Shown in pieces: positions 41,066 through 45,999 of a stretch of 64,000 nt of DNA. The stretch lies in IMG/VR virus record IMGVR_UViG_3300020473_002200, positions 32,001 to 96,000 of that record. One strand, given 5' to 3'. The position numbers and the translations under genes are program-made. The notes under the pieces are model-generated. The model did not search any database. It saw only the letters and a list, made by a program, of their open reading frames with translations, and had not been told where the DNA came from. How positions within the stretch are numbered: the stretch's first letter is position 1; each line of letters begins with the position of its first letter. The stretch is from a virus.

Positions 41066-42976
41066 ATGAGTTTTTCATTAGATACGTTGACGGAAGGTAT
41101 CAAGGCACGCAATGTGGGTCAGGGTAATCGTCGACTATTAGAAAAATGGGGACGTACGGGTCTCCTTCGCGGTTTGGAAGCTACCAACCGTGAGAATATG
41201 GCTACCCTTCTGGAAAACCAGGCGGGTCAGGCCCTTCGCGAAGCTTCTGCCCTCGCAGGTGGAGCTAATTCAGACATTCGCGGCTTTACGAACATTGCAT
41301 TTCCAATCGTTCGTCGCGTATTCGGTTCATTGATTGCCAATGAGCTTGTTTCAATCCAGCCAATGAGTCTTCCTTCTGGTCTGCTCTTTTACTTGGATTA
41401 CACATATGGCTCAGGTGTTGGTGCTGACGGTTCTCTGACTGAGAATGCTTATGATGCTGGCCAGTCAATCTATGGTTTACCAACAAACCCAGGTAAGAAC
41501 GGCCCAGCTCAGGCAGTCGGTGGTCAGTATGACCTTGCTGGTTCTGGTTACTCACGTCCGCACAAGAAATTAACTGCTGCTGCGATGAATGACGTTGAGG
41601 CAACCGTAGCGTTTAAGCCAGGTACACAGCTTAGTAACACTGATGCTGTATCTGCTAGTAAGCTGGTTTCTGCTGATTCTGCATGGATCAGCTACGACCC
41701 ACAGATTCAGGCCTTGATTGACGCCGGCGGCGACGCTGGTAACTTTGGTCTCTTGTCAATTCCAATTGCGGTTTTCGCGGATGCTGACTTGGATCTTATT
41801 CGAGAAATCGCTTTCTGGGAACATGACGATGATGGAACAGACTTCTACGTCAATGTGGATGCGTCAATCCAGGGTGGCGAAGGTATCTTCAACGTTCGTC
41901 GTTTGACACGACTCTTAAAGGGTACTCTGGCTGAAATTCAGGCTGCTTCCAGTCCTGCAGATCTTCTCTGTGGTAAGGCTGAGGCTACTCACGTTCTTCT
42001 CGTTGTGAAGCTTGGCGCAGCAGCTACTCAGTTTACTGCCGCTGACTTCGGTGACGGTGCTAACGCTGAGTACGGTCTCTCTTTCGTTGAGAAGGCTGGT
42101 ACAAACCAGAATGATCTTTCATCAGTCGTTTCACCTGCTTTCGAATCAGCGTTTAAAGTCTCTGACGGTGATGGTAACGATGTTTCTGGTATTCCAGAAA
42201 TCGACATCAAGATTGAGTCCGTCTCAGTCGTTGCTCAAACACGTAAGCTCAAGGCCAAATGGTCTCCAGAGCTCGCGCAGGATTTGAATGCTTACCACAG
42301 CCTTGACGCTGAGGTTGAGCTTACTCAGATTCTTTCTGAGCAGGTTGCTCTAGAGATTGACCGAGAAATTCTTGGAGACCTTCTCATGAACGCCGGTGCT
42401 GCTAACTTCTTCTGGAGTCGCTCACCAGGTAACTTCGTTAATAAGCGAAGCGGTGCTGCAGTTTCAAGAGCTACTTCACTTCGCCCTGGCCCGGCTTTCA
42501 CCGGTACAGTTCGTGAGTGGTACGAGACTCTTGTTGAGACCATCATCGATGTTTCTAACGAGATTCATAGAAAGACACTTCGTGGCGCTGGTAACTTCAT
42601 CGTTGTTAGCCCTGAGGTTGCAACCATTCTTGAAGCTTCCGTGCTTTACAAGCCAGCTCTGAGCCTCGATAGTGATGGCCAGGTTGCTAGCCCAATGGTT
42701 CTCGGTGCCGAGAAGGTTGGTACTCTTTCAAGCCGTTTCACGGTTTATAAAGACCCATACTTCCCACGTCACAAGATCCTTGTTGGCTTCAAGGGAAGCA
42801 GCTACTTAGAGACCGGATATGTTTACGCTCCGTACGTACCATTGATTGTCACACCAACAATCTTCGCGCCTGAGGATTTCACCCCACGTAAGGGTGTTAT
42901 GACTCGTTACGGCAAGAAGATGGTTCGTTCTGACTTCTACGGTACCGTTACATGCTTGGACATGAACGTTATCTAA
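41066..42976 (+). CDS. Major capsid protein (T4 gp23-like)
   Basis: ELVSIQPMSLPSGLLFYL, TRKLKAKWSPELAQDL, ILSEQVALEIDREI, GYVYAPYVPL, FTPRKGVMTRYG. Confidence 0.95.
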   Translation: MSFSLDTLTEGIKARNVGQGNRRLLEKWGRTGLLRGLEATNRENMATLLENQAGQALREASALAGGANSDIRGFTNIAFPIVRRVFGSLIANELVSIQPMSLPSGLLFYLDYTYGSGVGADGSLTENAYDAGQSIYGLPTNPGKNGPAQAVGGQYDLAGSGYSRPHKKLTAAAMNDVEATVAFKPGTQLSNTDAVSASKLVSADSAWISYDPQIQALIDAGGDAGNFGLLSIPIAVFADADLDLIREIAFWEHDDDGTDFYVNVDASIQGGEGIFNVRRLTRLLKGTLAEIQAASSPADLLCGKAEATHVLLVVKLGAAATQFTAADFGDGANAEYGLSFVEKAGTNQNDLSSVVSPAFESAFKVSDGDGNDVSGIPEIDIKIESVSVVAQTRKLKAKWSPELAQDLNAYHSLDAEVELTQILSEQVALEIDREILGDLLMNAGAANFFWSRSPGNFVNKRSGAAVSRATSLRPGPAFTGTVREWYETLVETIIDVSNEIHRKTLRGAGNFIVVSPEVATILEASVLYKPALSLDSDGQVASPMVLGAEKVGTLSSRFTVYKDPYFPRHKILVGFKGSSYLETGYVYAPYVPLIVTPTIFAPEDFTPRKGVMTRYGKKMVRSDFYGTVTCLDMNVI

Positions 42977-44647: not shown

Positions 44648-44693
44648 TTTTTAGCTATTATTATTCATTTTGTCTAAGCTAAAGGAGGCAAAC

Positions 44694-44993
44694 ATGGCTA
44701 CAGCTAAAAAGACTACAACGAAGACAACTGCTACAAAGGCAAAGACAACTGCTACAAAGGCAAAGACAACTGCTACAAAGGCAAAGGCGACCACCACTTC
44801 AACTTCTAAGACAGAAGTGGAGGCCCTTAAAAAGACTGTTGCGACTTTGAAAAATGAAGTTGCAAGTCTCAAAAAATCAATATCAGAAGTAAAAGATATG
44901 CAGCTAAGAGACGTTATTCTTACCTGGGCAGAAAGCCAACCTGACTTTAAGGTACTTCGTCGTTTACGAAGAGCCGGTATCACAAGAAGCTAA
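44694..44993 (+). CDS. Histone H1-like Lys/Thr/Ala-repeat protein with coiled coil
   Basis: GGAGG RBS favours the ATG at 44694; (KTTATKA)x3 followed by a heptad region. Confidence 0.65.
   Translation: MATAKKTTTKTTATKAKTTATKAKTTATKAKATTTSTSKTEVEALKKTVATLKNEVASLKKSISEVKDMQLRDVILTWAESQPDFKVLRRLRRAGITRS
44721..44783 (+). repeat. 21 bp tandem repeat x3
   Basis: AAGACAACTGCTACAAAGGCA repeated three times exactly. Confidence 0.95.
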
Positions 44994-45030
44994 TTCTTTT
45001 TGTAAATTCAATCTTTCTCTATAATTATTA

Positions 45031-45097
45031 GTAGGCCCGCATCATTTTTGATCAGCTGACCCTGCCAGCGGTGCGGAATCTTGCAGACAAAAAAGGA
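45031..45097 (+). ncRNA. Candidate structured cis-regulatory RNA with pseudoknot
   Basis: GC-rich island in an AT-rich gap. P1 CCGCAUC/GGUGCGG, P2 GCUG/CAGC, loop CUGC complementary to downstream GCAG; SD at 45093-45097. Confidence 0.5.
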
Positions 45098-45105
45098 GAA
45101 AGATC

Positions 45106-45552
45106 ATGCCAAAGATTCGACATATGGATACGAAGGGTCTCGTTCAAGAGACAGGATCAGGAGTTACTTTAGAGCAAGGAGCTCTCACTAGAACTATTAG
45201 TCACATCACAGCAACCGTGAATACCGCTAATGGAACAACAACAACAGATTTAGGCATTACCCCACCAGCTGGTTCACGTGCTTTAGGTTGGAAGATAGAA
45301 GTATTAGAAGTTACCGGCGCCGTTGCAGGTAATATTACTGATCTGGGGATTAAGGGCGTTGACGATGACGCAATATCAGGTACTATTGCGCTAGCTGGTA
45401 ATGCTGTGGCATCTCTAGCGGGAGCCGCAGTCGCCGCGACAAGAGACATCGACATGCCGGCTACGGAATTAATGATAACCCATGGCGACCCTGGTGCCGA
45501 AGGTCGTTCTTCTAAGGTTAGAGTTACAGTTCTTTTAGAAACTTGGGCTTAA
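45106..45552 (+). CDS. Probable capsid decoration/cement protein, paralogue 1
   Basis: Beta-rich, 148 aa, downstream of the MCP; AAGGAG RBS. Confidence 0.5.
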   Translation: MPKIRHMDTKGLVQETGSGVTLEQGALTRTISHITATVNTANGTTTTDLGITPPAGSRALGWKIEVLEVTGAVAGNITDLGIKGVDDDAISGTIALAGNAVASLAGAAVAATRDIDMPATELMITHGDPGAEGRSSKVRVTVLLETWA

Positions 45553-45561
45553 GGGTAAATT

Positions 45562-45999
45562 ATGAAAATTGAAATGACAGATGTAAAAGGTCTTGTAACA
45601 GATGGCACAGGTACAGGCCAAGTTTTAACACAGGGTGCAATTACAAGAACAATTAGCCACCTCACTGCGACACTTACGCTTGCAGACGGTACACAAAATG
45701 ATACTACGATTAATATTCCGGCAGGCGCTCTATGTCTAGGCTGGAAAGTCGAAGTTTTAACAGCTGGCGCGACTGATGTAAATATTACGTCGTTGGGTGC
45801 GGCCGCTGGTGGTGATATTAATATACTTTCTGGAGACTTCACGTTACCAAATGAAGCTGTTGGCACCGCGGCAGGTGCGTGTGATGCTCTTGTAAGAGAC
45901 GCCGCAGTTGGTGCATTAGACCTGTACGTTCACCATGGTGACGTAAATGCAGGCGGCGCTAAGATCAGGGTTTCAGTTATGATCGAGCAATGGTCGTAA
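45562..45999 (+). CDS. Probable capsid decoration/cement protein, paralogue 2
   Basis: Shares KGLV, QGA.TRTISH.TAT, PAG...LGWK.EVL, HGD and a terminal E.W with 45106..45552. Confidence 0.5.
   Translation: MKIEMTDVKGLVTDGTGTGQVLTQGAITRTISHLTATLTLADGTQNDTTINIPAGALCLGWKVEVLTAGATDVNITSLGAAAGGDINILSGDFTLPNEAVGTAAGACDALVRDAAVGALDLYVHHGDVNAGGAKIRVSVMIEQWS

Follow-up and report, generated by a model that had tools for sequence, protein, structure and literature searches.

A conserved four-helix leader RNA at the head of a decoration-like operon in uncultured T4-like phages

Does the short spacer ahead of a decoration-like gene in an uncultured phage encode a structured leader RNA, and what might such an RNA do there? 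To our knowledge, tailed phages have furnished few examples of structured cis-regulatory RNAs that act on structural genes, and the abundant, uncultured marine T4-like group has no catalogued one. The spacer lies in a stretch of 64,000 nucleotides (hereafter the window; 39% G+C), which comprises bases 32001-96000 of the 188,264-base record IMGVR_UViG_3300020473_002200, a record estimated to be 67% complete. The window encodes, at 41066-42976, a major capsid protein of the T4 gp23 type (PF07068, E 1.5e-77), which is only 37% identical to its best match, from an uncultured phage record, and gives partial matches of 44-49% to Flavobacterium and Microcystis phages. From its sequence, the source is an uncultured T4-like phage; some relatives were assembled from Tara Oceans and Global Ocean Sampling data. 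The leader lies in a spacer of 112 nt, flanked upstream by a 107-aa gene (44670-44993) and downstream by a 148-aa gene (45106-45552). The 107-aa protein contains Lys/Thr/Ala repeats of TAKxxTT type, and its C-terminal half is a coiled coil; its matches were weak only (PHROG 9090, DUF4618).

The 148-aa gene is the first of an operon on the + strand, on which all the leader features described below also lie, and its product begins with the N-terminus MPKIRH..KGLVQ. It is followed by a tandem paralogue of 145 aa without its own leader (45562-45999, + strand; sharing 48% identity with the first gene product, E 1e-34) and then by a neck or adaptor gene (PHROG 211), the counterpart of which in relatives carries PF26809 (Phage_T4_gp13). 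Neither the 148-aa protein nor the other proteins of this family, here called the MPK family, received a Pfam or PHROG family name. The AlphaFold2 model of the 148-aa protein is a jelly roll (pLDDT 86.8), for which the best Foldseek match is the cement protein of cyanophage Pam1 (7eel_H, E 1.4e-4), with the trimeric cement protein of phage KHP40 (7dou_4, E 4.1e-4) among the other top matches. The initial annotation of this locus, which had been made from the letters alone, called the downstream genes decoration-like, and the predicted fold makes this a reasonable, moderately supported label; the operon genes probably encode abundant virion proteins.

The two window proteins and those encoded at five loci of relatives (L038, L045, L042, L054, and L037) form one family in which the 20-residue N-terminus MPK[IV]x5KGLVQxxGxG is kept, and the bodies of its members are hypervariable, Ala/Gly/Thr-rich jelly rolls of 131-192 aa, which often occur as tandem paralogues. 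This arrangement looks like a conserved capsid-anchoring arm joined to interchangeable surface domains. In relatives, the operon is instead headed by an unrelated basic protein of 136-150 aa (MATSRGRK..) with an SH3-like C-terminus, and the MPKI gene comes next; the basic 144-aa first-gene protein of relatives has no Pfam or PHROG name and is absent from the record of the window. The public protein collection holds the product of the 148-aa gene as a 142-aa form that starts from Met7 (P0001; start 45124). The conserved MPKI N-terminus (MPKIRH in the window), the Shine-Dalgarno sequence at 45093-45098, and the fourth helix of the leader (PK2, described below) all agree on 45106, and thus they point to a public gene call that starts six codons late.

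Three of the helices of the leader had already been drawn in the initial annotation, and their bases were confirmed. The first, P1, is formed by 45037-45043 and 45070-45076 (CCGCAUC/GGUGCGG; 7 bp with one G-U pair), and the second, P2, by 45055-45058 and 45066-45069 (GCUG/CAGC), the 3' strand of which adjoins the 3' strand of P1. The loop of P2, ACCCUGC at 45059-45065, begins with the nearly invariant A45059, and its last four nucleotides (45062-45065) are the 5' strand of a pseudoknot helix, PK1, the 3' strand of which is GCAG at 45083-45086. Nested folding of the sequence is no better than chance (minimum free energy -17.8 kcal/mol, z = +0.31; an equal or better fold was obtained for 119 of 200 shuffles), and it is covariation among homologues that shows a real fold.

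Searches with megablast and blastn of the region and with tblastn of the 148-aa protein found no relative among 50,697 GenBank phage records; judged on these records, no cultured model phage carries the leader. The closest protein homologues (70-73% identity) have AT-rich leaders of their own of 19-38 nt, from which the hairpin seemed to be missing, and more distant homologues (L026, L006, and L007) show the same architecture in different sequences. With a covariance model built from the window and L026, the seemingly leaderless relatives were found to carry the motif after all, one gene farther upstream, where the operon begins; a loss of the motif in the closest homologues was thereby refuted. 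A 17-mer scan of IMG/VR gave nine more loci. Of 80 bacterial loci that share the 17-mer, none matched the model at E up to 0.01, and these are chance matches. In addition, 66 IMG/VR loci were fetched by means of the MPK-family N-terminus and scanned with a second model. The motif was detected in 65, and almost always its end lay 12-30 nt upstream of the ATG with which the operon begins. According to these searches, the motif recurs in dozens of uncultured marine T4-like phages before the same operon. Its place at the operon head is exclusive: the 188-kb record of the window contains one copy, and other late genes of the same phage are without the motif. Weak model matches at G000:159753, G002:14387, and L007:988 proved false, lying in coding sequence without the P1/P2 architecture. 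One relative, G001, carries two diverged copies 740 nt apart (L045 6864-6918 and 7603-7656; G001:69240 and 69979), each with its own promoter-like block and MPK-family gene and with differing PK1 and PK2 sequences.

Among 54 distinct sequences, 98.4% of the alignment cells in P1, P2, and PK1 hold standard pairs, and compensatory changes on both sides are seen at 14 of the 15 pairs; when the partners were slid by 1-3 columns as a control, pairing fell to 30-38%. The covariation score of 0.718 was reached by none of 500 shuffles (0.243 +/- 0.014). P1 is 98.9% paired, with changes on both sides at all seven pairs and up to five pair types per position, and P2 is 97.6% paired, with covariation at three of four pairs and a closing G-C pair that is nearly invariant. 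The covariance model held P1 and P2 only, and PK1 was left out of it; its pairing is therefore evidence independent of the alignment. Three positions of PK1 are 100% paired and the fourth is 92.5% paired, and all four pairs covary, with CUGC/GCAG, CCGC/GCGG, CCAC/GUGG, CCCA/UGGG, CCGA/UCGG, and AUAC/GUAU among the variants. An all-against-all column scan revealed no further helix with a run of covarying pairs, and it rejected helices between the 5' AGG and the loop, between the AGG and the linker, and between the joining strand and the linker. AT-rich variants of the motif (L199 917-969 and L244 356-408; 30-36% G+C) sit before a small gene (MSEEK../MSDEK..) upstream of the MPK gene. These variants keep all four helices, with PK1 as AUAC/GUAU, and hence the fold is independent of the GC-rich island in which it lies in the window.

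The 11-nt strand that joins P1 to P2 (45044-45054) was taken as an internal loop or asymmetric bulge in the initial annotation. On the basis of its complementarity, this strand is instead the anti-start-codon strand of a fourth helix, PK2, an assignment that suggests the likely mechanism of the leader. In the window, UGAUC at 45049-45053 pairs with GAUCA at 45102-45106, which ends on the A of the start codon. The P1-P2 strand is 9-11 nt long across lineages and is complementary to the start-codon region in every one of them, with targets that lie at -6 to +4 around the AUG; elsewhere, the duplex is UAUAAUC/GAUUAUG, CAUAAC/GUUAUG, GCAUAA/UUAUGC, CCAUAA/UUAUGG, GUGAAC/GUUCAC, GUGAUC/GAUCAC, or UUGAC/GUCAA. 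In total, 58 distinct combinations of strand and start region gave more than 20 duplex sequences. The summed duplex energy of these combinations is -313 kcal/mol, compared with -95 +/- 10.5 (minimum -134) for shuffled strands, but such figures come from related rows and hence are not probabilities, and the argument is carried by the independent duplex sequences. On average, a strand pairs with its own start region at -5.46 kcal/mol and with those of other lineages at -2.49 kcal/mol, the own region being the better partner in 47 of 53 cases. When 17 leaders in the register of the window were aligned with MAFFT, with no fitting to structure, PK2 was 100% paired, and the pair 45050/45105 was G-C in 6 leaders and A-U in 11. 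Furthermore, PK2 tracks whichever start codon comes first in the operon, be it that of an MPK.., MATSRGRK.., or MSEEK.. gene. The helix is short at 5-8 bp, rich in A and U, and worth -3 to -10 kcal/mol when treated as a bimolecular duplex; it might only tune translation rather than switching it. In the window, UUUUUG at 45045-45050 could also pair with CAAAAA at 45088-45093 in competition with PK2; this pairing is confined to the subgroup of the window, is not conserved in other lineages, and may be a chance complementarity or a lineage-specific switch.

Upstream of P1, a promoter motif had been placed at 45020-45027 and a transcription start near G45031. The motif stands as a conserved promoter-like -10 block, ATAATTA at 45021-45027, with the family consensus ATAnnTA located 9-15 nt before P1 (A 0.80, T 0.91, A 0.89, n, n, T 0.94, A 0.91 when 64 distinct upstream flanks were anchored on P1), and a generic sigma-70 scan made no call at this block. 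The position of the start, in turn, shifts. The UAGG just before P1 (45032-45035) is conserved (T-4 0.78, A-3 0.98, R-2 1.00, and G-1 1.00), and from the invariant A-3, R-2, and G-1 we infer that transcription likely begins at A45033-G45035 rather than at G45031. No conserved pairing partner was found for the UAGG, which may be the initiating sequence of the promoter. The double pseudoknot would then begin 1-4 nt past the transcript start and reach to the AUG. In relatives, a hairpin followed by a T-run terminator lies directly upstream of the promoter-like block, and a terminator scan of the window found none upstream of the leader. No genome-wide late promoter is claimed, because the pattern TTGTAA...TATAWW is not enriched within the window and TCTATAATTATT, with up to two mismatches, gave 29 matches against 17 expected.

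Conservation also extends to nucleotides that remain unpaired, about eight of which are almost invariant: A45059 in the P2 loop, four positions of the linker AAUCUU between P1 and PK1 (45077-45082), and the A-C-A at 45087-45089. In the linker, A45077, A45078, and C45080 are conserved in 100% and U45082 in 98% of 53 distinct sequences. The A-C-A opens the 15-nt strand that joins PK1 to PK2 (45087-45101), which also contains the Shine-Dalgarno sequence AAGGAG (45093-45098); this sequence is unpaired in the conserved fold, on a strand that spans between the two helices. Leaders with long spacers (L014 264-288, L213 238-260, and their relatives) possess an extra hairpin that overlaps the 5' half of the Shine-Dalgarno sequence and covaries (UCAC/GUGA versus UCCU/AGGA), and it is absent from the short spacer of the window.

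No known family accounts for this RNA. Among the 4227 models of Rfam 15, none matched over the leader in the window at E up to 10 and none matched five divergent representative leaders at E up to 5, in agreement with the initial annotation, which had recognized no riboswitch or ribozyme consensus and had proposed the pseudoknotted leader as a candidate new cis-regulatory RNA. Nor is the leader an intrinsic terminator, since P1 is followed by AAUCUU and a + strand terminator scan made no call at the site. A literature search found no published description of the leader. A catalogue of IMG/VR sequences lists 8495 "DNAVirus" candidate structured RNAs (PMC10690425), and because the motif falls within the entry criteria of that paper, the leader may be an unnamed entry among them. 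On the comparative evidence, it is a real, well-supported, uncatalogued phage leader RNA.

As for its function, helices that drift in sequence while their pairing is kept, about eight invariant unpaired nucleotides, and a helix that tracks the start codon argue for a regulatory leader that hinders initiation. We consider the leader at 45033-45108 to be a cis-acting translational control RNA that would mask the start codon, with a probability of about 0.68. In this mechanism, the leader would fold into a nested double pseudoknot composed of P1, P2, PK1, and PK2. Once closed, the fold would hold the A of the AUG and the preceding four nucleotides in the PK2 helix and string the Shine-Dalgarno sequence between the two pseudoknots, so that the 30S subunit would have to open PK2 to initiate. 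The invariant unpaired nucleotides may build the tertiary core of the fold or be the surface that an effector recognizes; such an effector could stabilize or open the closed form. Translational repression, an effector, and its nature are what we infer here from these features; the effector would most likely be a phage protein, such as a surplus virion protein acting autogenously. A protein seems likelier than a metabolite in this role because the regulated genes encode virion proteins. A search for a homologue of RegA gave no match in the 67%-complete record, and the same family also matched none of 14 control genomes, so that the lack of a match carries no weight. Counting against the mechanism are the unpaired state of the Shine-Dalgarno sequence, the shortness of PK2, the unremarkable stability of the nested fold, and the absence from this record of the basic 144-aa protein that leads the operon in relatives.

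The favored mechanistic analogy is with the alpha-operon leader (bound by S4, RF00140) and the rpsO leader (bound by S15, RF00114) of E. coli, in which a pseudoknot likewise takes in the initiation region and initiation is repressed when the fold is stabilized. The leader nevertheless differs from them in that there is no similarity in sequence or model and that the downstream genes encode jelly-roll virion proteins instead of ribosomal proteins. Translational controls by mRNA structure are also found in T4, namely, the pseudoknot of the gene 32 leader and the initiation-masking hairpins of soc and e, which act by promoter choice; soc is itself a decoration gene. Like these, the leader belongs to a T4-type phage, precedes a late or structural gene, and places RNA structure at the initiation region. 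Unlike the simple hairpins and single pseudoknot of T4, however, it is a whole knot downstream of a promoter-like block, and it has no homology to them.

Among the alternatives to translational control, a constitutive protective fold is rather unlikely. Such a knot at the extreme 5' end would stabilize the late mRNA, with no effector and no switching, by shielding it against 5'-end-dependent decay or against cleavage in the AU-rich initiation region. The close approach of the fold to the likely 5' end, the probable abundance of the encoded virion proteins, and the free Shine-Dalgarno sequence are all consistent with this function. However, a stabilizer needs only a terminal hairpin, not two covarying pseudoknots, and has no need for invariant unpaired nucleotides or for a helix that tracks the start codon; moreover, the other late genes of the same phage do without the motif.

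A small-molecule riboswitch, in which P1, P2, PK1, and the invariant joining nucleotides would constitute the aptamer and the anti-start strand would be an embedded expression platform, is doubtful. SAM-II and preQ1-II are pseudoknot riboswitches that act on translation and have a similar layout. More broadly, the leader resembles SAM-II, SAM-V, preQ1-I/II/III, guanidine-III, and fluoride riboswitches in its small pseudoknotted core and in its conserved joining nucleotides near the ribosome-binding site. The core is compact (about 55 nt), its unpaired nucleotides are conserved and its helices are variable, and the variable strand covaries with the start region, as this explanation would suggest. 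In contrast to those riboswitches, the leader matches no known riboswitch family, masks the start codon instead of the Shine-Dalgarno sequence, and precedes genes for virion surface proteins, which have no metabolic link and a context that suggests no ligand.

The overall topology of the leader resembles that of the HDV ribozyme, and an HDV-like self-cleaving ribozyme could cut just 5' of P1 to free the operon mRNA from read-through transcripts. In HDV-like ribozymes, G1 forms a G-U wobble. G1, at the foot of P1, marks the site of cleavage, and the invariant catalytic cytosine is the first nucleotide of J4/2, where a change from C to U inactivates the ribozyme (PMC10879173). Phages commonly harbor minimal HDV-like ribozymes, P4-less and phage "theta" forms among them (PMC10879173), and the leader possesses covarying equivalents of HDV P1, P3, and P2. 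In both, a nested double pseudoknot of about 55-75 nt is built on a 7-bp P1, the 3' strand of P1 directly continues the 3' strand of a 3-4-bp hairpin, a distal 3' segment pairs with the stretch that separates P1 from this hairpin, and the hairpin loop pairs 3' of P1. The absence of an upstream terminator in the window would also allow read-through. The hallmarks of catalysis are nonetheless lacking, as far as the aligned sequences indicate. At the outermost position of P1, 46 of 53 leaders have C-G (C45037-G45076 in the window), 3 have U-A, and 3 have U-G, instead of the G1 wobble. The equivalent of the catalytic cytosine (45088) is U in 3 of 53 distinct leaders, and the leader of L233 has no C anywhere in its PK1-PK2 strand. 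HDV P1.1 has 2 bp directly after P1, whereas the loop helix of the leader has 4 bp located 6 nt after P1 and uses the 3' half of the loop. In addition, the distal helix holds the start codon, the joining strand carries the Shine-Dalgarno sequence, HDV-type Rfam models gave no match, and cleavage would remove only a few nucleotides, the conserved promoter-like block being only about 10 nt upstream. A ribozyme of this kind is thus very improbable.

Finally, the bistable leader that the initial annotation had envisaged, in which the P2 loop would alternate between GCAG (45083-45086) and the 5' GUAGG (45031-45035; 5 bp with one G-U) in two mutually exclusive pseudoknots, is scarcely credible even though both pairings can be drawn in the window, because the loop position equivalent to 45063 changes from U to C in most lineages, which is compensated in the GCAG partner (A to G) and never in the opposing, 98% invariant 5' A, so that the GUAGG form shows no covariation and has A-C mismatches in most lineages, and because two of the five pairs would be missing from a transcript that begins at A45033.

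The whole leader, from the 5' end of the transcript to the AUG, appears to be one evolutionarily maintained knot. As a natural HDV-type double pseudoknot without catalytic hallmarks, it bears on how folds of this kind come to be re-used. There is a small chance that the leader represents a new functional RNA class, either an HDV-topology fold re-used as an aptamer that responds to a ligand or a protein and gates the start codon of the virion-surface genes, or a self-cleaving variant with a different active site; if this were true, marine T4-like phages would possess a new class of riboswitch or ribozyme of their own. In metagenomic phage contigs, the leader can serve as a sequence marker for the promoter of the decoration operon and its first gene, and it corrects gene starts, as for the 148-aa gene. 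Masking of the start codon would provide a mechanistic handle, and the invariant unpaired nucleotides call for a partner. As the translational control RNA favored here, the leader would be a compact system for testing how translation is controlled during late expression in phages.
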